Position numbers and translations under genes: made by a program | Assembly: GCA_028282585.1 (NCBI GenBank) | Contig: JANQHR010000131.1 | Span: forward strand, 1-10,572 | Source of the DNA: Bacteroidales bacterium | GTDB taxonomy: Bacteria; Bacteroidota; Bacteroidia; Bacteroidales; UBA12077 | DNA: 10,572 bases | Direction: 5' to 3' | Shown: in pieces, positions 1-10,465 of the stretch | Layout: each line of letters opens with the position of its first letter | How positions within the stretch are numbered: position 1 is the stretch's first letter | The notes under the pieces: generated by a model | Databases searched by the model: none | Told to the model about the DNA's origin: nothing | The model's input: the letters and a program-made list of their open reading frames with translations, nothing else

Positions 1-574
1 GAACTTTCCAGCCTTTATAATCTGCAGGTCGCGTGTATACGGGTGGCGCTAATAAATTATCCTGAAATGAATCTGTCAATGCTGACGTTTCATCTGAAAT
101 TACGCCCGGAACCAGCCTAACAACACTATCAACAACAATAGCCGCCGCCAATTCCCCACCGGTTAAAACATAATCTCCGATTGATATTTCTTTGGTAATA
201 AAATGATCACGTATTCTTTGGTCAATTCCTTTATAGTGGCCACAAAGTATCATGATATTCTCGTATGTAGCTAATTTATTAGCTTCTTGTTGATTATATT
301 TTATACCATCCGGTGATGTATAAATTATTTCATCATAATCCCTTTTTGATTTTAAGGATGATATTGCCCGGTCTATTGGCTCAATCATCATAACCATGCC
401 TGCCTCTCCTCCAAAAGGATAATCATCTATGCTTTTATGTTTATTACTAGCATAATCTCGCAAGTTGTGTATATAAATCTCGGTATGTCCCTTTTCCTGA
501 GCTCTCTTAATTATACTATGTTCAAGCGGGCTTCTCAATAATTCTGGCAATACGGTTATAATATCAATTCTCAT
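1..574 (-). CDS. trmD: tRNA (guanine-N1)-methyltransferase TrmD, 5' part (191 codons; continues past the left edge)
   Basis: Manual translation from the ATG at 574 (CAT at 572-574): [29 protein letters not shown]...HNLRDY...[14 protein letters not shown]...YTSPDG...[13 protein letters not shown]...[16 protein letters not shown]...VVRLVPGVI...[24 protein letters not shown]. These are the hallmark TrmD/SPOUT motifs, and the frame is open to position 2. Confidence 0.98.
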
Positions 575-839: not shown

Positions 840-1286
840 ATGACACTAGTAAGAATGAACAGACCGGTATCCTATATGCACAGAAATGGATACAGAACAT
901 TTTCAGATTTAGTAAATGAAATGTTTAATGAAGAAAAAATTAGTACGAATCAATTCATCGTAATTCCACCCGCAAATATTGTAGAATCTAAATTCGACTT
1001 TAGAATTGAAATTGCTGCTCCCGGATTCGAAAAATCTGATTTCAAAGTTGATCTGGACAAAAACCTTTTAACTATTTCACTGGATAAATCAGTTGACGAA
1101 AATGAAGAAGAAAAGTACAATTCGAAAGAATTTAACTTTAACTCTTTTAAAAGGTCATTTCGAGTTTCTGATAAGATCGATTCTGAAAAAATCAATGCGA
1201 TTTACAAAAACGGATTATTACAGGTTGTTCTTCCTAAAAAAGAAGAGGCGATTGAAAAACCAGCAAGAGAAATAAAAATTTCATAA
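840..1286 (+). CDS. Small heat-shock protein, Hsp20/alpha-crystallin family
   Basis: 148 aa with PPANIVE, IEIAAPGFEKSDFKV, FKRSFRV, the AxYxNGLLxV motif (INAIYKNGLLQVVLPK) and a C-terminal IxI motif (REIKIS). Confidence 0.95.
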   Translation: MTLVRMNRPVSYMHRNGYRTFSDLVNEMFNEEKISTNQFIVIPPANIVESKFDFRIEIAAPGFEKSDFKVDLDKNLLTISLDKSVDENEEEKYNSKEFNFNSFKRSFRVSDKIDSEKINAIYKNGLLQVVLPKKEEAIEKPAREIKIS

Positions 1287-1316: not shown

Positions 1317-1349
1317 AAATCCCCAAAGATTAGATTCTTTGGGGATTTT
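1317..1349. terminator. Intrinsic terminator, probably bidirectional, between hsp20 and the convergent fibre operon
   Basis: 13-bp perfect stem AAATCCCCAAAGA (1317-1329) / TCTTTGGGGATTT (1336-1348) with a 6-nt loop. It lies between the convergent stops at 1286 and 1370 and has short T runs on both strands. Confidence 0.85.
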
Positions 1350-1369: not shown

Positions 1370-3355
1370 TTATCGCTTATCTAACAATTCTATAATTTCA
1401 TTTAGTTTTTGCTTTAATTCCTCATTTTCTGCTTTTAGCTCCTCTATTTGCGCCTGTTGTTCATTAACTGCATCTATCAATATTGGGGTAAACTTAACAT
1501 AATCAACAGCCTTATAACCTTTTGTATTTGTATGGACTAACTCTGGTAAAGTTTTTTCAACATCTTGTGCAATTATACCTACTTGTTGCCGATCTTTAAA
1601 ACCCAGCTCATTTTTTGCGTATTCATTCCATTTAAAATAATACGCACTAATACCGGACAACAATTTTAATCCGGATTGTATTTTTACAAATTCTTTCTTT
1701 AAGCTTATATCTGAAGGCAATGCAGAAACACTTGCATATAAGGTACCTGTGATGGTTACCTCTTCTTCTGAGAAATCTCCATAGATTAATGTAGAACTGG
1801 AATTATTTGCTATAAAAAGCTGGTTATCTCCCGTTGAACCGGCACCAGCATTATAACCAATACAAACATTTCCGCTTCCCAATCTATTTAAATGGCCGCC
1901 CCCTCCGGCATATGCCCCAACAAACACATTATAATTACCCGTTGATGAACCTCCAGCACTAAAACCAGCCCCATTTCCTACAATAGTATTTTCATTTCCC
2001 CTTAAATTTCTTCCTGCATCAATTCCAACTATTGTGGTTGCATAAAATTCATTATCCGTTACATATTGGTTGTACCCAGTTCTATCACCAATACATATAT
2101 TATCATCTCCGCTAACATTTTTACCGGCCTCATTTCCAATAAATGTGCTATGCGTAGCTCCTACAGATCTTTCACCAGCCAGGTTGCCAATAAAGATATT
2201 ATCGTAACCACCGGTCATATCATAACCTGTTCTAATTCCAATAAATACATTATTATTTCCACTTTTGTTAGAATAACCAGCCCGGTGTCCTAAAAATAAA
2301 TTACTTGATGCACCGAGCGCGTTATTTCCTGCTTCATAACCAAACATACTATTAAATTTTCCAGTAGTGAGTCGTGAACCTGCGTTATGACCAATTAAAT
2401 AATTTTGCTTTGTCAAATTCAATAAACTTTCCGATACTCCACTTTCAATATTTGCAATACCAAACCCGGCTGTTGAATCTTTAACAAAAATTCTTGTGCT
2501 ATCCGGCAGGACCTGCAAATAATTATTAGTTAATCCTTTGGAAGGATTTCGTCCGCTAACTGCAAAACCTCCAACTTTACCTTTTGTTAATGGTTCTTCA
2601 TTAACATAAACTCTGGTACTGTCCGCCGTAACAAAGAATAATTCTGCATTAGTTCCTTTACTAGGATTACGCCCACTTACGGCAAATCCTCCAACTTTAC
2701 CCTTTGCATTAATCGTGTCACTTACATAAATTCTTGTGCTATCCGGCGTTACAGTAAATATTGTTACATCCGATGATTTTGAAGGATTTCTACCACTTAC
2801 CGCAAAACCACCTACTTTTCCTTTTGAAGATTCGTTCACGATAACTTCCGCTCCGTCCGGAAATACGGCAAATACAACATTACCATCATGATCTTTAACA
2901 ACAAATAAAGTATCTGTTGTTGTGGAGTATACTGCATTAGAACCCAGATTTTCCGCATTAAGCGCTTTCTCAGAATATAGAGCGTATGGAACTGATAAAA
3001 GTTGCACGGTACCCATATCCACATATCCACTTCCAGCATCAACCTCAATACCTAAATATTTGTCATTTTCTCCCCAGTTTATTTGAGAAAAGGTGCCTGA
3101 TTCAACTGTTCCATCTCCTATTACCAGGTTTACAACTCCGTATGAATTAGTGGTTTTGGTATGTATTTCCTGATAAAGTATTGATCCTGTTGGCTCATTA
3201 TCTATTATTGATATTCGGATATCTACGCTTTGATCCGTGATCAATTCACCTGAATTGTTTCGAAGAACTGCCTGATAATTGAAATTACCGGGAACTTGTG
3301 CTATCAAATCAAAAGAAAGTAGCACCATTAAAACCAAATAGAATAGTTTTTTCAT
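1370..3355 (-). CDS. Secreted tail-fibre-like protein with C-terminal S74 intramolecular chaperone (paralog A, 661 aa)
   Basis: Signal peptide (..LSFDLIA|QVPG); conserved N-domain NYQAVLR...LLSVPYA; 3 x 40-aa KGKVGGFAVSGRNPSK repeats; 11 NxxxGxxAG repeats; SDISLK...YYFKW...QVGIIAQDVEKTLPELV...GYKAVDY; terminal coiled coil. Confidence 0.88.
   Translation of the reverse strand: MKKLFYLVLMVLLSFDLIAQVPGNFNYQAVLRNNSGELITDQSVDIRISIIDNEPTGSILYQEIHTKTTNSYGVVNLVIGDGTVESGTFSQINWGENDKYLGIEVDAGSGYVDMGTVQLLSVPYALYSEKALNAENLGSNAVYSTTTDTLFVVKDHDGNVVFAVFPDGAEVIVNESSKGKVGGFAVSGRNPSKSSDVTIFTVTPDSTRIYVSDTINAKGKVGGFAVSGRNPSKGTNAELFFVTADSTRVYVNEEPLTKGKVGGFAVSGRNPSKGLTNNYLQVLPDSTRIFVKDSTAGFGIANIESGVSESLLNLTKQNYLIGHNAGSRLTTGKFNSMFGYEAGNNALGASSNLFLGHRAGYSNKSGNNNVFIGIRTGYDMTGGYDNIFIGNLAGERSVGATHSTFIGNEAGKNVSGDDNICIGDRTGYNQYVTDNEFYATTIVGIDAGRNLRGNENTIVGNGAGFSAGGSSTGNYNVFVGAYAGGGGHLNRLGSGNVCIGYNAGAGSTGDNQLFIANNSSSTLIYGDFSEEEVTITGTLYASVSALPSDISLKKEFVKIQSGLKLLSGISAYYFKWNEYAKNELGFKDRQQVGIIAQDVEKTLPELVHTNTKGYKAVDYVKFTPILIDAVNEQQAQIEELKAENEELKQKLNEIIELLDKR
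1830..2407 (-). repeat. Gly/Asn-rich intragenic repeats (11 copies, mostly 16-17 aa), probable beta-solenoid
   Basis: NYLIGHNAG, NSMFGYEAG, NLFLGHRAG, NVFIGIRTG, NIFIGNLAG, STFIGNEAG, NICIGDRTG, TTIVGIDAG, NTIVGNGAG, NVFVGAYAG, NVCIGYNAG. Lower boundary approximate. Confidence 0.85.
2476..2824 (-). repeat. Three ~120-nt coding repeats (40-aa unit) in paralog A
   Basis: KGKVGGFAVSGRNPSK-x10-DSTR(I/V)(Y/F)V occurs three times; the DNA copies are offset by 120 nt (near 2541, 2661 and 2781). Confidence 0.93.
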
Positions 3356-3379
3356 GATATCATAGTTTATAATTATTAG

Positions 3380-5683
3380 CTATTTTAATAGAAGTTCTTC
3401 TAGCTTTTTAAGCCTTTCTTCAAGTTCTGTATTCTTCCGTTCTAAATCTTCTATAATTGATTGCTGCTCTTTAATTGCTTCAACTAAAACAGGTGTTACT
3501 TTACCGTAATCAATTGCTTTATAACCTTCATGATCCGCCTTAACTAATTCCGGTATTATTTCTTCCATTTCCTGGGCAATGAATCCAACCTGATCCCGAC
3601 CCGAAAATCTCTGTTGTTTAAATTCATCAACTCTCCAATTAAAAGTAACCCCCCTCATTTTCATTATTTTATCTAAAGCATTCTCATAAGTTTTTATATT
3701 ATTCTTGAATCTAGCATCGGACCCACCCCAAGAACCTCCAGAACAATAAGCTTCTCCATAAACCAATAAAGTATAGATTCCAGTCTGTCCATCAGGCACA
3801 TCTACAATTAAACCATAATTGTTATATGCCTGGTAATTAATCCCCACATTACCATTTATCCGTAGATGGTTTTGGTCAAATTCACCATAAAACAATGCTT
3901 CAGTTGAATCAACATTTTCATTTTCTATTATTAGCCTATTATTTATACCATCCGCATAATATCCAGCTTCATTACCAATAAAAACATTTCCTGAACCTTC
4001 ACGAATATTATATCCGGCATAATAACCTAAAAATGTATTATTTGAACCTTCATAATTAAGGTAACCAGCCCTATAACCTAACATCGTATTGTAGCTCCCT
4101 GTAGTAGTAAAAGAGCCAACCGCCTGTCCAATATATGTATTCCGTGTTCCTGTGTTGGAACTTATACTATACCCGGCACCATTACCAACAAAAGTATTAT
4201 TGCCACCAGTCGCACTTCGCCCTGCAGAAGTACCAATAAAAGTGTTATTGCTCCCTGCTGCATTTTCTCCCGCCAAAGAGCCATATACTGAATTACTGGC
4301 AGTAGTTAATGAATATCCACTTCGGTAACCCACAAAGGTATTCTGAAATGTATTTTGAGTAGAATAACCACTTTCTGTTCCTACATAAACATTATTACCT
4401 CCGCCCAAATTAGAATAACCACTTTGGTAACCTAAAAATAAGTTATTACTACCAGCTGTATTTGCATAGCCAGCTTGGTAGCCAATCATGCTATTGTAGG
4501 CTCCTGTTGTATTTTCACCAGTTTGATGGCCAATTCGATAATTTTGTTTATTTAAATTTAAGAAGCTTTCTGCGGTACCGCTTTCTATATTGGCAATACT
4601 AAAACCTGCTACAGAATCTTTTACAAAAATCCTTGTACTATCAGGCGATACCTGCATATAACTTGTTAATGTACCTTTTGAAGGGTTTCTTCCGCTAACA
4701 GCAAATCCTCCAACTTTACCTTTAGTTCCCGAATCCGTTATATAAACTCTGGTACTATCTTTTGTTACCTGCAAATAGTCATTTACTGTTCCTTTTGAAG
4801 GGTTTCTTCCACTCACCGCAAAACCTCCTACCTTGCCTTTTCCTGTTTGATCATCATTTACATATATTCTGGTACTATCTGCAGTAATAAATAACAATTC
4901 CGTATTAGTATTCTTAGACGGATTTCTTCCACTTACAGCAAATCCTCCAACTTTACCTTTACTTGAAACAGTATCATTAACATAAATTCTTGTACTATCC
5001 GGAGTAACTTTAAGAATATTCACATCGGTCGCTTTTGAAGGATTACGTCCGCTAACTGCGAAACCACCTACTTTTCCCTTTGCAGTTTCGTTAACTATAA
5101 CCTCTGCACCATCAGGAAATACTGCAAAAACAACATTACCATCATGATCCTTAACCACAAATAAAGTATCAACTGAAGGTGAGTAAATAGCATCCGATCC
5201 TAACACTTTTGCCATATTAGCTTCGTCTGCATAAAGTGCACTATTAGCAGAGTTTGCAGTATGGGCTACTACCGAAACTCTTGACGAATCAGATATATTT
5301 GAATAATTAGCATATGGAACGGATAAAAATTTTATCACCCCCAAATCAACATAACCATTACCATCATCAACTTCAATTCCCAAATATTTGTCATTTTCAC
5401 CCCAGTTTATTTGAGAAAAGGTGCCGGATTCAATTGTTCCATCTCCTATTACCAAATTTACAACTCCATAAGAATTAGTAGTTTTGGTATGTGTTTCCTG
5501 ATAAAGTGCAGATCCTGTCGGCTCATTATCTATTATTGATATTCGGATATCTACACTTTGATCTGTAATTAGTTCTCCGGCATCATCCCGTAGAACAGCC
5601 TGATAGTTAAAATTACCAGGAACCTGTGCCAATAGATCAAATGATAACAGCAGAACACAAAACATTAAGTAAAACTTTTTCAT
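3380..5683 (-). CDS. Secreted tail-fibre-like protein with C-terminal S74 intramolecular chaperone (paralog B, 767 aa)
   Basis: Signal peptide (..LSFDLLA|QVPG); same N-domain; 4 x 39-40-aa repeats; 12 Gly/Asn repeats; SDARFKNNI...RGVTFNW...QVGFIAQEMEEIIPELV...GYKAIDYGKVTPVLVEAIKEQQ; coiled coil. Its stop is 24 nt before the start of paralog A. Confidence 0.9.
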   Translation of the reverse strand: MKKFYLMFCVLLLSFDLLAQVPGNFNYQAVLRDDAGELITDQSVDIRISIIDNEPTGSALYQETHTKTTNSYGVVNLVIGDGTIESGTFSQINWGENDKYLGIEVDDGNGYVDLGVIKFLSVPYANYSNISDSSRVSVVAHTANSANSALYADEANMAKVLGSDAIYSPSVDTLFVVKDHDGNVVFAVFPDGAEVIVNETAKGKVGGFAVSGRNPSKATDVNILKVTPDSTRIYVNDTVSSKGKVGGFAVSGRNPSKNTNTELLFITADSTRIYVNDDQTGKGKVGGFAVSGRNPSKGTVNDYLQVTKDSTRVYITDSGTKGKVGGFAVSGRNPSKGTLTSYMQVSPDSTRIFVKDSVAGFSIANIESGTAESFLNLNKQNYRIGHQTGENTTGAYNSMIGYQAGYANTAGSNNLFLGYQSGYSNLGGGNNVYVGTESGYSTQNTFQNTFVGYRSGYSLTTASNSVYGSLAGENAAGSNNTFIGTSAGRSATGGNNTFVGNGAGYSISSNTGTRNTYIGQAVGSFTTTGSYNTMLGYRAGYLNYEGSNNTFLGYYAGYNIREGSGNVFIGNEAGYYADGINNRLIIENENVDSTEALFYGEFDQNHLRINGNVGINYQAYNNYGLIVDVPDGQTGIYTLLVYGEAYCSGGSWGGSDARFKNNIKTYENALDKIMKMRGVTFNWRVDEFKQQRFSGRDQVGFIAQEMEEIIPELVKADHEGYKAIDYGKVTPVLVEAIKEQQSIIEDLERKNTELEERLKKLEELLLK
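3950..4546 (-). repeat. Gly/Asn-rich intragenic repeats (12 copies, 16-19 aa)
   Basis: Examples: NNLFLGYQSG, NNVYVGTESG, QNTFVGYRSG, NNTFIGTSAG, NNTFVGNGAG, YNTMLGYRAG, NNTFLGYYAG, GNVFIGNEAG. Lower boundary approximate. Confidence 0.85.
4614..5081 (-). repeat. Four ~120-nt coding repeats (39-40-aa unit) in paralog B
   Basis: Four exact KGKVGGFAVSGRNPSK peptides, each followed by DSTR(I/V)(Y/F). Confidence 0.93.
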
Positions 5684-5725
5684 AGTTTCGTTTATTTAAT
5701 TCAACATCATACTTTTAGTAACAAA

Positions 5726-7810
5726 CTACTTAAGAATAAGTTCCTCAAGTCTTTTTAGTCTGTTTTTTAGCTCCTTATTTTCAGCTTTTAAATCTTCAAT
5801 TTGAGTTTGTTGTTCCTTAACGGATTCAATTAAAATCGGAGTAATTTTCGAATAATCTATCACCTTGTAACCTTCCTTATTCTCTGATACAAGTTCTGGT
5901 AAAATTTTTTCTACTTCCTGGGCAATAAGACCAATCTGCTTTCTTTCCGAAGGTTTATAATCAATAAAAGAATTTTTATTCCAATAATAATAAACTGGCG
6001 AAAAATTACTTATTATACCTAATGCATTAACAATAGGAGTAATATTCATTTTATATCTTAAATCTGAACAGGCTCCTAATGATCCTGTATAACATAGGTC
6101 ACCATTAATTTGTACTAATTCGCTACCGTCATCAAAATCTCCATATATTAAAGGTGAAGAAGTTGAAGAATTATCAATATATAATTTATCATCAACATCG
6201 GCTCCGTAGCCAGCAAAATATCCAACAAAAACATTTCCCGAACCTTCATAACAGCGCTGACCTGCATAATAACCTAAAAATGTATTATTGCTCCCCTCTC
6301 TGCAAAGCTCTCCGGCTTTTACTCCTAAAAACACATTATTATCTCCTTTACTTTGATTACCAGCCTGATTGCCTATATAGGTATTAAATTCTCCGGTAAT
6401 ACCACTTGCACAGGTTGCATATCCTACATAAGTATTATATCTACCCCTTGTAACTCCTTCGCCTGAGTTATAACCAATGTAAACATTATAACTTCCTTCT
6501 GTGCTTTCCATGGCAGATGAATCAATATGTGCATTACTGTACCCTGCACGGTTACCAATAAAAATATTTCCAAAGCCCGTAGAATTGTTATAACCTGCAT
6601 TTGGGCCCATAAACACATTACTTCCACCGGAATTATTCCATCGACCACTTTCATAGCCTAAAAATAAATTATTGGAACCCGATGTATTATTTACACCACT
6701 CTGATGTCCAATAAAGTAGTTTCGAAACGAAAGTTGTAAGTAGCTTTGATCACTTCCCGAACTATTATCACGCACTCCGAATCCTCCTTCAGAATCCTTT
6801 GTAAAAATCCTTGTACTATCAGCCGTGGCTATAAACATGGGTTGATTTATACCTTTACTGGGGTTACGCCCGCTTACAGCAAAACTACCAACTTTGCCTT
6901 TTCCTGTAGGATCATCATTTACAAAAATATGAGTACTATCTGCAGTTATAATTAGTATATCTGATTGATTTGTTTTTGATGGATTCCTGCCACTTACAGC
7001 AAATCCTCCAACTTTTCCTTTTGCTGTAACCGTGTCGTTAATATAAATTCTGGTACTATCAGGGGTAACTTTTAAAATAATTACATCGGTCGCTTTTGAT
7101 GGATTACGTCCGCTAACTGCAAAACCACCTACTTTTCCTTTAGCGGTTTCGTTAACTATAACCTCTGCACCATCAGGAAATACTGCAAAAACAACATTAC
7201 CATCATGATCTTTAACGACAAATAAAGTATCAACTGAAGGTGAGTAAATAGCGTCTGATCCTAACACTTTTGCCATGTTAGCTTCATTTGCATATAGCGC
7301 ATTATTAGCAGAGTTTGCAGTATGAGCTACTGCCGACACCCCCGATGAATCTGCATATATTGCACTGTTAGCAGAATTTGCACTATAAGCTACTCCTGAA
7401 ACTCTTGACGAATCGGATATATTTGAATAATTAGCATATGGAACGGATAATAATTTTACCGCTCCCAAATCAATATAACCATTACCATCATCCACTTCTA
7501 TTCCAAGATATTTATCATTTTCACTCCAATTTATTTGTGAAAAACTTCCGGACTCCACAGTTCCTTCTCCAATCGGTAAATTTACAATGCCGTAAGCATT
7601 AGTTGTATCCATGTGCACCTCAGAATATAAAACCGTTCCTGTTGGCAGATTATTAATTATTGATACTCGAACATCAATTGATTGATCTGTTAAAAGCTCT
7701 CCCGCATTATCTCTTAGAACAGCTTGATAGTTAAAACTATTTGGCACTTGTGCAGCAATTTGCTGAACTATAAGCAAAAGAAAAAAAGTAAAACAAATAT
7801 TCTTTTTCAT
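5726..7810 (-). CDS. Secreted tail-fibre-like protein with C-terminal S74 intramolecular chaperone (paralog C, 694 aa; first gene of the probable operon)
   Basis: Signal peptide (..VQQIAA|QVPN); N-domain; duplicated 21-aa Ala-rich linker; 3 x 40-aa repeats; 10 Gly/Asn repeats; SDLRYKMNI...PVYYYW...QIGLIAQEVEKILPELV...GYKVIDYSKITPILIESVKEQQ; coiled coil. Its stop is 42 nt before the start of paralog B. Confidence 0.9.
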   Translation of the reverse strand: MKKNICFTFFLLLIVQQIAAQVPNSFNYQAVLRDNAGELLTDQSIDVRVSIINNLPTGTVLYSEVHMDTTNAYGIVNLPIGEGTVESGSFSQINWSENDKYLGIEVDDGNGYIDLGAVKLLSVPYANYSNISDSSRVSGVAYSANSANSAIYADSSGVSAVAHTANSANNALYANEANMAKVLGSDAIYSPSVDTLFVVKDHDGNVVFAVFPDGAEVIVNETAKGKVGGFAVSGRNPSKATDVIILKVTPDSTRIYINDTVTAKGKVGGFAVSGRNPSKTNQSDILIITADSTHIFVNDDPTGKGKVGSFAVSGRNPSKGINQPMFIATADSTRIFTKDSEGGFGVRDNSSGSDQSYLQLSFRNYFIGHQSGVNNTSGSNNLFLGYESGRWNNSGGSNVFMGPNAGYNNSTGFGNIFIGNRAGYSNAHIDSSAMESTEGSYNVYIGYNSGEGVTRGRYNTYVGYATCASGITGEFNTYIGNQAGNQSKGDNNVFLGVKAGELCREGSNNTFLGYYAGQRCYEGSGNVFVGYFAGYGADVDDKLYIDNSSTSSPLIYGDFDDGSELVQINGDLCYTGSLGACSDLRYKMNITPIVNALGIISNFSPVYYYWNKNSFIDYKPSERKQIGLIAQEVEKILPELVSENKEGYKVIDYSKITPILIESVKEQQTQIEDLKAENKELKNRLKRLEELILK
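6200..6724 (-). repeat. Gly/Asn-rich intragenic repeats (10 copies)
   Basis: NYFIGHQSG, NLFLGYESG, NVFMGPNAG, NIFIGNRAG, NVYIGYNSG, NTYVGYATC, NTYIGNQAG, NVFLGVKAG, NTFLGYYAG, NVFVGYFAG. Lower boundary approximate. Confidence 0.85.
6790..7141 (-). repeat. Three ~120-nt coding repeats (40-aa unit) in paralog C
   Basis: Two exact KGKVGGFAVSGRNPSK peptides plus one KGKVGSFAVSGRNPSK, each followed by DST(R/H)I. Confidence 0.93.
7289..7414 (-). repeat. Tandem 63-nt duplication (2 x 21 aa Ala-rich linker) in paralog C
   Basis: DSSRVSGVAYSANSANSAIYA followed by DSSGVSAVAHTANSANNALYA. Paralog B has a single copy at 5228-5290. Confidence 0.85.
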
Positions 7811-8104
7811 GGCTCGTAATTTAAGTTTGTAATTTCTTTTGATTTTTATACATTCTAATTAGGAAGCTTCAAGTTAAGTAAAATGACATTAGCTTTCAAC
7901 TAATTAAGACTATTATTTATTTATAATTTTTCTCAATAATTATAAAAAGCAATACTATCGGTATATAGCACAACCCCACCTGACGTTATGGAAATAAATA
8001 TTTTAAATCGTTAATACAATTTAATCATGTATTAAAAAAAATTTATAACTTGAAGATAATTAAAGTTTAAGCTAATTAACTATTAACCCAAAATCCAACT
8101 TATT

Positions 8105-10465
8105 ATGAAATTTAAACCTAATAATTTTATAAGTAAGATTGCAATTTTACTTATTTTCCAATTTCTTTTTGCGTTTAACGGTAAAACGCAAATGATAAGC
8201 CAGAATCCTTCCGATTATCCTGCCGGAACAACATTCTCCAATTGTCCTGGTGGTAGTTGTGTTATTTCATTACCAGCGGCAAGATTTAACCAGGATTATG
8301 ACATAACAATTCCTGTAACAGTTCCTATAACCACACACGTTTTTACACCATCAAACAGCTCAGGGAGTTGTACAGAAATAACTGATAATCACACACTGAC
8401 AAATAGTGCCAATTTGGTTGAGTTTAAAGTTACACAAAGATGCCCAACTGGTACGGCTAACTCTTTTAGCTTTACATTAAACGTAGATGATGGAGTAAAT
8501 CCACCGGAACATCAAGATTTTTTTATTCCAATAATTAGAGACACGGTTAAACTTGTTCTGGTACTGGATATTTCGGGAAGCATGTCTCTTCCGGTACAGG
8601 GAACAACAGACGCAAGAATTGATGCATTAAAAACAGCAGTATACGGGCTTGTTCCAAAGCTTGAAGAATTACAGCAAGGATTAGGAGACTCATTATCTTT
8701 AACATACTTTTCTTCATCGGTAATTGATCCCAACCTATCGGTTTTTAATGATTTTGTTGTTATAGACAATACAGATGCAAGTCCGGCAAATTGGTCTTTT
8801 TCAAAAGTATTTGCAGATCTTGACCCTAGAACGCCTCAACAAATGACAGCGATGGGTGAAGGATTACTGGATGCTAAAAATAAGCTAAAACTTGACTCTT
8901 CACCTAATTTAAAACGTTTGGTGTTTTTATTTACGGATGGATTGCAAAATTATGGAAACCAGTTAAAACCAGACGGAATGAGTTTTTATGATACAAATGA
9001 TTCGTTAAATAACCATTCAGCAAATCCTAAAGATAGCATTCAATACTTCCCTGTTGCAACATGGGGTGCAGGTGCACAGCCGGTAATTTTACAAGAAATT
9101 GCAAATAATAGTGACGGTGAAGTATTATTCGTAACTCCCGCAACTGATTTAACAGACTGGTTTAACACTCAATTATCAAATATGCTCGACCAGGGAAGTC
9201 CACAGATTGTACTTAATAAATCAATGAATAGTTTATCCGGAGAAACGACTATTCCTTTTAAATTAAACGAACATGTCAATACATTACTTATACAATTAAA
9301 TAGTAAAGATACGGTTGATCTTGCGGTGTTTAAAGAAAGTAATAATTTGAACTCTAAAGCAAGGGTTCGTAATGGTAATGGTTTTACAATCGTAAGCTAC
9401 AAATTTCCAATCATGGGAGACCCGGCAACTCATTCGGGTGGTGATTGGGAAATTAAATTAAACGGGAACACTGATAATCCAATAAACGTATCAGTAATAG
9501 CTGATGATCATTATTTAGATTATAATTGCGCAACAGATAAAGAATTATATACGGTAGGTGATGTAATTCATTTAAGAACTTCTATTAGCCATAATGGTAA
9601 TCCTGTAACAACTTCCGGAAATACTGTAACGGCAATTGTGCTTAAACCCGGTGATGATTTGGGAGATATGCTTTCAAATTATGAAACACCGGATTTTGAT
9701 GATTCTTTAATAGATATTGAATCAGGTGCGGCACAAAAATTTAATGAATTAATGATGAATGATTCATCATTCTTTAATGCTTTACTGCCAGAAGAGCAAG
9801 TTATAAATTTAACCGATGACGGCAATGGCAATTTTACCGGTCAGTTTTCTTCCACAGAATTAGCTGGTTTTTATAACATTATATACTTATTGGAAGGTGA
9901 AATAGCAAACTTCGGGAACTTTAAAAGAAGAAAAACAAAATCAATTGTTTTTGAATTTGGGCAGGTTGAAGAAGAAAAACCTGAGGAAGTTAAAGATGCG
10001 CCGCCTGCATCATCGGGAAGCAATAAAAACTTCACAGTGCTAAAAATACGACCACGAAATAAATATGGAAAATTCATGGGGCCAGGCTTTAAATCAAAAA
10101 TTAGCCTAAAAATAAATCCAAAAAATGTTACAGCTCATAAAACAGCTATGACACAAGAAAGTAATGAAATAAGAGCGCCTTATTTAAGTGAAATGAAGGA
10201 TAATCTTGATGGAAGTTATTATCTGTATATTGCAAACATAACAGATATGGATAAGTGGGATTTTAGTGTTATGGTTGGTGATGAAGTTTTATATGATTAC
10301 TCCGGTTCAATTCCATGGTGGGTTTATTTAGTAGCATTTCTACTATTATTGTTAATTTACCTGGTAAAAAAATCAAAAGCCGCTAAAGTGTTCTTTTGGA
10401 TTCTATTAATTATTTGGTTAGTAGTTATAATATTACATTATCTAGGCTACATAAGCTTCCTTTAA
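8105..10465 (+). CDS. Exported von Willebrand factor A (vWA) domain protein with C-terminal membrane anchor (786 aa)
   Basis: N-terminal signal-like segment; complete MIDAS set: VLVLDISGSMS (DxSxS from 8567), MTAMGEGL and VFLFTDG. Beta-rich domains follow, then two C-terminal hydrophobic helices (PWWVYLVAFLLLLLIYLV-KKSK-AAKVFFWILLIIWLVVIILHYL). Confidence 0.88.
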   Translation: MKFKPNNFISKIAILLIFQFLFAFNGKTQMISQNPSDYPAGTTFSNCPGGSCVISLPAARFNQDYDITIPVTVPITTHVFTPSNSSGSCTEITDNHTLTNSANLVEFKVTQRCPTGTANSFSFTLNVDDGVNPPEHQDFFIPIIRDTVKLVLVLDISGSMSLPVQGTTDARIDALKTAVYGLVPKLEELQQGLGDSLSLTYFSSSVIDPNLSVFNDFVVIDNTDASPANWSFSKVFADLDPRTPQQMTAMGEGLLDAKNKLKLDSSPNLKRLVFLFTDGLQNYGNQLKPDGMSFYDTNDSLNNHSANPKDSIQYFPVATWGAGAQPVILQEIANNSDGEVLFVTPATDLTDWFNTQLSNMLDQGSPQIVLNKSMNSLSGETTIPFKLNEHVNTLLIQLNSKDTVDLAVFKESNNLNSKARVRNGNGFTIVSYKFPIMGDPATHSGGDWEIKLNGNTDNPINVSVIADDHYLDYNCATDKELYTVGDVIHLRTSISHNGNPVTTSGNTVTAIVLKPGDDLGDMLSNYETPDFDDSLIDIESGAAQKFNELMMNDSSFFNALLPEEQVINLTDDGNGNFTGQFSSTELAGFYNIIYLLEGEIANFGNFKRRKTKSIVFEFGQVEEEKPEEVKDAPPASSGSNKNFTVLKIRPRNKYGKFMGPGFKSKISLKINPKNVTAHKTAMTQESNEIRAPYLSEMKDNLDGSYYLYIANITDMDKWDFSVMVGDEVLYDYSGSIPWWVYLVAFLLLLLIYLVKKSKAAKVFFWILLIIWLVVIILHYLGYISFL

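Follow-up and report, generated by a model that had tools for sequence, protein, structure and literature searches.

A tandem array of probable self-cleaving trimeric fibre genes of the mosaic adhesive trimer type in a Bacteroidales genome

The present analysis concerns a stretch of 10,572 nt (hereafter the window), which is the entire contig C73 (JANQHR010000131.1) of the draft genome of a Bacteroidales bacterium (G000; 4.9 Mb, 98% complete), and within it three tandem paralogs, A, B and C, whose products are probably chimeric fibres of the cell itself: exported, self-cleaving, trimeric and surface-held proteins of the type described in Bdellovibrio as mosaic adhesive trimers (MATs). The three genes lie on the minus strand (A, 5726-7810, 694 aa; B, 3380-5683, 767 aa; C, 1370-3355, 661 aa) and are separated by 42 nt (A-B) and 24 nt (B-C). 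A preliminary description, made from the sequence alone, had proposed three co-oriented paralogs closed by one terminator and built on one architecture; the open reading frames (ORFs), a folded hairpin at 1318-1347 and the domain assignments bear this out. The plan common to A, B and C consists of a signal peptide, a conserved N-domain, a helical neck of variable length, 40-aa repeats, Gly/Asn repeats, an S74 chaperone with an SDxxxK motif, and a long C-terminal helix.

Signal peptides of the Bacteroidota type are predicted in all three proteins, in agreement with the preliminary description. Each carries a single N-terminal hydrophobic segment with a KK n-region and a predicted cleavage between the Ala and Gln of an ...A/QVP site, both signal peptide and cleavage being called by heuristic prediction. 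The Gln at +1 is invariant in 61/61 sequences of an alignment comprising B, its two paralogs and 58 homologues picked for near-full coverage among the 120 matches listed, as well as in 40/40 sequences of a second alignment; a Gln after the cleavage site corresponds to the Bacteroidetes "Q-rule" (PMC5837995 and PMC10653852). Based on the ORFs, domain searches and cleavage-site prediction, the precursors are predicted to divide into a signal peptide (residues 1-20 of A, 1-19 of B and 1-19 of C), a mature fibre (21-581, 20-654 and 20-547, corresponding to 561, 635 and 528 residues, respectively) and a released chaperone of 113-114 residues (582-694, 655-767 and 548-661). As predicted from these sequences, each precursor would pass through Sec and then be cleaved behind Ala19/20 by signal peptidase I; the Gln that this exposes may, under the Q-rule, be cyclised to pyroglutamate.

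At the opposite end, all three proteins match Peptidase_S74 (PF13884; 52.6, 66.5 and 42.3 bits for A, B and C, respectively, against a cut-off of 22), as the preliminary description had anticipated. SDxxxK begins at A582, B655 and C548, giving the dyads S582/K587, S655/K660 and S548/K553, and the catalytic Ser and Lys (S655 and K660 in B) are invariant in 61/61 of the aligned sequences. The chaperone and C-terminal helix are encoded at 3383-3721 in B, 5729-6067 in A and 1373-1714 in C (minus strand, as for all parts of the three genes given below). In a model of the C-terminal 418 residues of B (pLDDT 77.8), strands recur at intervals of about 16-17 residues to form a solenoid, behind which come the chaperone and a helix of 40 residues. 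Foldseek ranked 7dc3, the ICA domain of MyRF, as the best match to this model (E 3e-4, probability 1.00), followed by 3gw6, 3gud and 4uw8, while a sequence search of the PDB returned 6f45 (distal subunit of a phage long tail fibre, E 5e-8) and again 7dc3. MyRF thus provides both the best structural match and a sequence match to the chaperone, but it is a eukaryotic membrane-bound transcription factor with no fibre function, unlike A, B and C. The phage S74 fibres and spikes, namely K1F endosialidase (3gw6), the T5 L-shaped tail fibre pb1 (4uw8) and the long tail fibre distal subunit (6f45), share the chaperone with its Ser-Lys dyad and the repetitive beta-structure preceding it; however, they lack a signal peptide and attach to a virion through their N-termini, whereas the N-terminal half of A, B and C appears cellular and is absent from phage records. 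By analogy with phage S74 proteins, the chaperone and helix would put three identical chains in register and serve as the template on which the Gly/Asn solenoid, the shaft of 40-aa repeats and the helical neck fold as a homotrimer, and the Ser-Lys dyad may cut off the last 113-114 residues, uncovering the tip.

Between these ends, the N-domain (~105 residues, about residues 20-125) is encoded at 5309-5626 in B, 7433-7750 in A and 2981-3298 in C, and is presumed to form the base or anchor of the fibre. It was identified through a match to the profile NF053851, and in an AlphaFold2 (AF2) model of the B monomer it forms a beta-sandwich at pLDDT above 90, with the neck and 40-aa repeats falling below 60. 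The helical neck of B (about residues 126-193; 5105-5308), defined by helices in the same model, is lengthened in A and shortened in C through a 22-aa SANSA-type repeat. Next come the 40-aa repeats (KGKVGGFAVSGRNPSK...DSTRIYV), delimited by DNA and protein repeat analysis, of which there are 3, 4 and 3 copies in A, B and C (A, 6806-7165; B, 4628-5104; C, 2489-2848); at the DNA level these are 10 copies with a spacing of 117-120 nt. No Pfam family above cut-off and no match in phage records was found for them. The Gly/Asn repeats recur about every 17 residues; they occupy 3884-4543 in B, 6131-6733 in A and 1796-2410 in C, and correspond to a predicted beta-solenoid (pLDDT around 90) that would constitute the variable distal shaft and tip and is shared with phage tail fibres.

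The preliminary description had also read these proteins as trimeric, and a model of three copies of B residues 20-320 points the same way. Its median ipSAE was 0.76 compared with 0.00 for the best control, with a contact agreement between runs of at least 89%, a partner pLDDT of at least 76 and a pLDDT of 77-80. In calibration, the mark applied to this score was reached by 20/30 solved homomers and by 1/23 single chains, which is roughly valid for the custom alignment and three copies used here. The predicted interface follows the helices of the neck, takes in each of the 40-aa repeats and is tightest at model residues 100-143 (neck), with the N-domains touching little; we are aware of no comparable complex of the N-terminal half. 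Homotrimers of A, B and C are supported by this model; heterotrimers among the three seem unlikely, because S74 domains, which are thought to set the register of the chains, are just 36-48% identical between the paralogs.

The closest described counterpart of this architecture is provided by the MAT fibres of Bdellovibrio (Caulton 2024; PMC10769870), so the earlier statement that no functional description was known for such proteins no longer holds. Passages of that paper describe fibres with a signal peptide and a trimeric fibre, and with a C-terminal S74 carrying SDxxxK in 13/21 members; Bd3182 cleaves itself at the S74 serine, MATs are displayed on the surface, one tip binds glycans, and the solved structures described are tip fragments. 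Other strains, "predatory and otherwise", are stated there to have MAT proteins. In the S74 subgroup of Bdellovibrio MATs (e.g. Bd3182) the order of parts is the same as in A, B and C, comprising a signal peptide, a conserved beta-rich N-domain (about 130 aa in the MATs) directly after it, a long trimeric fibre and a C-terminal S74 with SDxxxK, and each forms a multigene family whose base is conserved and whose tips vary, some members lacking S74. Their N-domains are also detectably related: NF053851 (Bdello_MAT_N, "mosaic adhesive trimer family chimeric fiber protein") matched the N-termini of A, B and C with E of 8e-13, 1e-10 and 2e-13, respectively, the match in A spanning profile positions 2-147 of 162. 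The same profile matched 7 places in the genome of origin (0/7 over its cut-off), 57/61 of the aligned sequences, and 0/14 control genomes.

Several features nevertheless set A, B and C apart from the Bdellovibrio fibres. Their host is a member of the Bacteroidales and not a known predator, the proteins are shorter (661-767 aa versus about 1000), their N-domain stays under the NCBIfam subfamily cut-off, and their shaft contains the 40-aa repeat, to which no Pfam family corresponds above cut-off. Genes of the type represented by A, B and C are also arranged as tandem arrays that occupy a fixed site and are frequently accompanied by a von Willebrand factor A (vWA) gene. On sequence comparison, A, B and C have the MAT design and a remotely related N-domain, and fall outside the Bdellovibrio subfamily as NCBI delimits it. 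A survey of the literature by titles found no description of MAT-like fibres in Bacteroidota, and the supplementary tables of PMC10769870 may already name Bacteroidota. Extending from the Bdellovibrio MATs, the N-terminal beta-sandwich would hold the base of the fibre on the envelope with the variable end outward, and the variable tip may bind glycans or further features on the surfaces of cells, hosts or particles, such that the three paralogs would present three different tips on a nearly identical base. It is by this analogy that we infer surface display; a route across the outer membrane is presumed.

That the system is a domesticated phage fibre, as the preliminary description had it, agrees with the C-terminal half of the proteins but not with the rest. 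Whole B matched 1137 phage records, none of them across at least 80% of B, and the 25 of these matches that were listed all begin at residue 322 or later; similarly, PHROG matches were to tail-fibre and tail-spike families, nearly all on the C-terminal part. A search of 50,697 phage records with residues 1-357 of B yielded nothing at E up to 0.1, so the fibre protein is a chimera. These C-terminal similarities to many phage tail-fibre and tail-spike families, together with the database label "tail fiber domain-containing protein" given to relatives, could suggest that A, B and C are instead tail fibres of a phage, tailocin or extracellular contractile injection system whose genes lie elsewhere in the genome, or are left over from one. 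We regard this as very improbable in view of the phage-free N-terminal 357 residues, the family-wide conservation of the signal peptides with their invariant Gln+1, and the genomic setting. The neighbours are trmD, hsp20 and a vWA gene, as first described, a Pfam search of the window matched no phage structural or integrase family, and the PF04984 sheath, the sole contractile-system family searched for, was absent from the 98%-complete genome of origin.

Comparison with related genomes places the fibre genes at a fixed chromosomal site with housekeeping flanks. At the syntenic site of G008, a closed genome of the same genus, the order is trmD-hsp20-[7 fibre genes + one subtilase-like gene]-319-aa gene-...-ndk-recF, the names of the flanking genes having been read off N-terminal sequences without a family search, and a second site in that genome holds 6 further fibre genes. 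Genome G003 has 13 fibre genes in one run of ~40 kb, which shares its ndk-side flank with G008. The same chromosomal site carries 3 to 13 fibre genes in relatives, and the absence of a prophage or contractile-injection context noted for the window extends to these arrays between housekeeping genes. In the genome of origin, contig C62 contains the ndk-side edge of the array site with two more fibre genes, and contig C16 contains one fibre gene at the second site. Synteny with L017 and G008 suggests that contig C73 runs on into C62. Relatives of B were found in 28/31 related genomes (G000 included), and the closest protein relatives are named as uncultured Bacteroidales. At the second site, an isolated S74 match in a 49-aa open frame (G000:C16:38470-38586; L008, L056) lies just upstream of the lone fibre gene, where the syntenic site of G008 has six, and is probably the remnant of a lost paralog. 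This site is flanked by a gene whose 1082-aa product combines Reg_prop, Y_Y_Y and SpoIIE phosphatase domains (G000:C16:32571-35819; L056), and a gene of similar size takes the same position in G008.

Some relatives are labelled by JGI as "trimeric autotransporter adhesin", and trimeric autotransporter adhesins such as YadA, BpaC and AtaA are likewise trimeric surface fibres with solenoid head repeats and coiled-coil necks. YadA-like heads resemble the Gly/Asn repeats weakly in Foldseek (E 0.3-3), and some N-domain relatives bear YadA-head repeats (PF05658). A, B and C nonetheless differ from these adhesins in lacking a C-terminal membrane-anchor barrel, in their opposite polarity (the base being N-terminal) and in a predicted trimerisation via a removable chaperone. 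The C-terminus consists of S74 and a helix, with no Pfam match to a YadA-type membrane anchor. Cargo of T9SS, the secretion system of type IX, is the other conventional class of surface adhesin, and no match was obtained in A, B or C to the T9SS sorting domain Por_Secre_tail, which the same search readily detected in three other proteins of the genome of origin. A conventional adhesin, whether a type Vc trimeric autotransporter or T9SS cargo, consequently seems scarcely credible as an explanation of the three genes.

A more serious question is where the trimers go once exported. A, B and C could be exported self-cleaving trimers but not anchored adhesins: they would remain periplasmic or else leave the cell, into the medium or inside vesicles, and might serve as matrix fibres, as spikes that degrade glycans or as bacteriocin-like agents. 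No recognised signal for outer-membrane targeting or anchoring is present in the three proteins; since a C-terminal T9SS domain does occur in other S74 proteins of this genome, its absence here may be meaningful. Phage S74 proteins also include enzymes such as endosialidases, of which 3gw6 is among the fold matches, and passages of PMC10769870 report Bdellovibrio MATs in a deposited vesicle. Conversely, profile searches with Pfam and NCBIfam detected no catalytic family in the mature part of A, B and C, and the combination of a conserved base with variable tips, and of many lectin- or adhesin-like tips on the same N-domain, fits display better; the Bdellovibrio relatives, moreover, were detected on the cell surface according to the same passages. 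We judge release or periplasmic retention to be unlikely on this evidence, and prefer the reading of A, B and C as surface-held fibres of the MAT type.

A number of observations weigh against this preferred reading and temper it. With 48.4 (A), 41.7 (B) and 50.7 (C) bits, the Bdello_MAT_N matches fall short of the 60 bits set as the curated cut-off, which makes the link with Bdellovibrio a remote one. The three proteins have no T9SS C-terminal domain, lipobox or autotransporter barrel, and a known outer-membrane route is not visible in them. The anchoring role of the N-domain is a guess, because its fold matches generic Ig-like domains only: the best hit, to Ig-like domains of GH2 enzymes, has a Z of 7.7, within the common range, and no specific relative was recovered by this fold search, which agrees with the remark in passages of PMC10769870 that the PDB contains no structural homologue of the MAT N-domain. 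The trimer score, for its part, reflects the confidence of the model itself and is no measurement. In addition, homologues of the vWA gene were not found in the same-genus complete genomes G003 and G008, both of which have large arrays. Finally, part of the mosaic pattern described below could be an assembly effect. Independent contigs of run X1 cover the window at 100% identity and span the C-B, B-A and A-vWA junctions, but they break within the near-identical N-terminal parts of B and A (5114-5525 and 7175-7421), which are left unbridged, so that the join of base to body in each paralog depends on the assembler. Runs X2, X5 and X6 contain parts of the window only, at 90-99% identity and from related strains, and no RNA run appeared among those listed for the window.

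Identity among the paralogs is distributed unevenly along their length, amounting to 73-96% in the base, 41-53% in the Gly/Asn part and 36-48% in S74. DNA identity amounts to 93-98% between A and B over B residues 120-219 and to 91% between B and C over residues 60-90, a distribution suggestive of gene conversion among the paralogs, and the family would accordingly evolve as a tandem array at a fixed chromosomal site through duplication and gene conversion.

The reach of the N-domain extends well beyond the S74 fibres. A search with residues 20-130 matched 959/1021 scored candidates at E up to 1e-3, and the domain was found in 592/600 candidate stretches of Bacteroidota genomes, those of cultured Flavobacterium (F. 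dankookense DSM 25687) and Taibaiella (T. koreensis) among them; a further cultured carrier, Williamwhitmania taraxaci, has a homologue with the full architecture (P0053). In the 1021-candidate search, the C-terminal parts behind the domain belong to families including S74, YadA-head (PF05658), collagen, Fib_succ_major, DUF1566, fn3, SusD-like and fasciclin, among others, and matches in the Protein Atlas were limited to unnamed Bacteroidota clusters. The best 80 of the 592 loci contain 94 N-domain ORFs, comprising 18 with S74 (9 of these also with the 40-aa repeat), 8 with the 40-aa repeat but no S74 and 68 with neither, in a tally whose HMMs were built from the three proteins of the window only and may miss diverged copies. 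From these sequence matches, the N-domain appears to be a general module that carries many tip types across Bacteroidota. The genome of origin has seven N-domain ORFs, one with a Fib_succ_major tip: this non-S74 member of the family, a protein of 505 aa (G000:C80:3502-5019; L058), is encoded immediately behind a small protein that bears a T9SS sorting domain. Also identified in this genome were two secreted proteins without the N-domain (G000:C58:2244-3209, L059, 321 aa; G000:C161:31131-32846, L060, 571 aa) in which Peptidase_S74 is followed by a T9SS C-terminal sorting domain, an odd combination that places a self-cleaving chaperone upstream of a secretion tag.

A bolder extension, which we hold to be rather doubtful, is that the ~105-residue N-domain is a Bacteroidota-wide "display handle". 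It would mark cargo for a route to the outer surface, or for an attachment there, that has yet to be described and that needs neither the T9SS C-terminal domain nor lipoprotein export, and hundreds of different tips would use it (S74 fibres, collagen, YadA-head, Fib_succ_major, lectin-like), with the trmD-hsp20 arrays as a recombining store of cassettes and the embedded vWA/MIDAS membrane protein as part of the assembly or anchoring machinery. If this were true, the cassette store at the trmD-hsp20 site would reset the adhesion targets of the cell.

Work on MAT-type fibres has to date been confined to Bdellovibrio, where they are read as prey-recognition gear, and the "mosaic adhesive" literature found concerns Bdellovibrio-type predators or bacterial predation. 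The same design here constitutes a large, fast-evolving family across Bacteroidota, with arrays of up to 13 genes at one site and with cultured carriers included, and would therefore be a general way for bacteria to bear phage-type receptor-binding tips on their own surface and not a speciality of predators. What goes beyond the known MATs is the predicted trimer-forming 40-aa shaft repeat (novelty being judged against Pfam and phage records), the apparent gene-conversion mosaics, an N-domain with many tip types and the recurrent vWA companion. A question common to Bdellovibrio, namely how the fibres cross and hold to the outer membrane, is also sharpened, with the N-domain and the vWA companion as handles on it. 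Together with this export and anchoring step, the scale of the family in Bacteroidota, the dynamics of its arrays, the 40-aa trimer shaft and the vWA companion are the points of interest for future research.

The vWA companion (8105-10465, plus strand) encodes a protein of 786 aa which, from family search and sequence reading, has a signal peptide, a MIDAS motif (adhesion site dependent on metal ions), DISGS, at residue 155, and, at its C-terminus, a hydrophobic stretch (732-786). The preliminary description had listed it as a neighbour, and comparison with related genomes indicates that it is not an unrelated flank. Homologues occur inside or beside fibre arrays in 4/13 related loci examined (L017, at 69% identity, L046, L016 and L048), and 9 of the 18 same-genus genomes searched have a homologue, all 9 with a copy within about 2 kb of a fibre match. 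The vWA protein is a frequent companion of fibre arrays and not a bystander, and its absence from G003 and G008 indicates that it is dispensable. A role as co-adhesin or assembly helper for this vWA/MIDAS membrane protein is speculative. Bdellovibrio has a separate family of MIDAS adhesins, which passages of PMC11003981 and PMC12428579 describe as lipoproteins of different architecture, so any parallel is functional at most. In two relatives, the fibre arrays contain, at the position that the vWA gene occupies in other genomes, a gene of 819 or 865 aa (G008:C1:2007757-2010216, L061; G003:C10:45765-48362, L054); the G008 copy matches Peptidase_S8 (E 1e-9), and both copies are without an obvious signal peptide.

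Six large ORFs occupy the window, and every other listed ORF of at least 60 aa is nested inside these six. On the downstream side of the fibre genes, trmD (2-574, minus strand; 256 bits against a cut-off of 220) has its 5' part cut off at the contig end and represents the housekeeping flank also seen in G008. Between it and the fibre genes lies hsp20 (840-1286, plus strand), assigned by family search and found as a conserved flank at the same position in G008 and in L017. The terminator-like hairpin at 1318-1347 (minus strand), recognised by sequence reading and folding, sits in the interval that separates the stop codon of gene C from that of the convergent hsp20 gene and would be common to both; it has a 12-bp GC-rich stem, with CUGUUU directly after, and folds at -24.9 kcal/mol (z -4.45), a stability equalled by 0/200 shuffles. 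A consensus scan for terminators missed this hairpin. Upstream of the array, an AT-rich divergent intergenic region of 294 nt (7811-8104) separates gene A from the vWA gene and presumably contains the promoters of both. The Bacteroidetes -7 box TAnnTTTG occurred 18 times in the window against 16.8 expected, and the minus strand had none either upstream of gene A or within the 42- and 24-nt gaps, so that no promoter was identified by this motif; promoter-like sites in a consensus scan were rarer in the window than in shuffles, and an Rfam scan of the window found no family at gathering score. An invertible promoter was also considered and rejected, as the region 7780-8130 holds just short AT-rich inverted repeats.

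The hsp20 gene recurs at the edge of fibre arrays (window 840-1286; G008:C1:2001081-2001533; L017:14022-14471), and an hsp20-like gene adjoins the fibre array on contig C62 of the genome of origin (G000:C62:28830-29297); this recurrence may reflect mere synteny or a chaperone link. The far end of the contig (10472-10572) has a summed contig depth of 248, compared with ~16 elsewhere, and is probably a multi-copy repeat that broke the assembly, since many different sequences continue from it in run X1.

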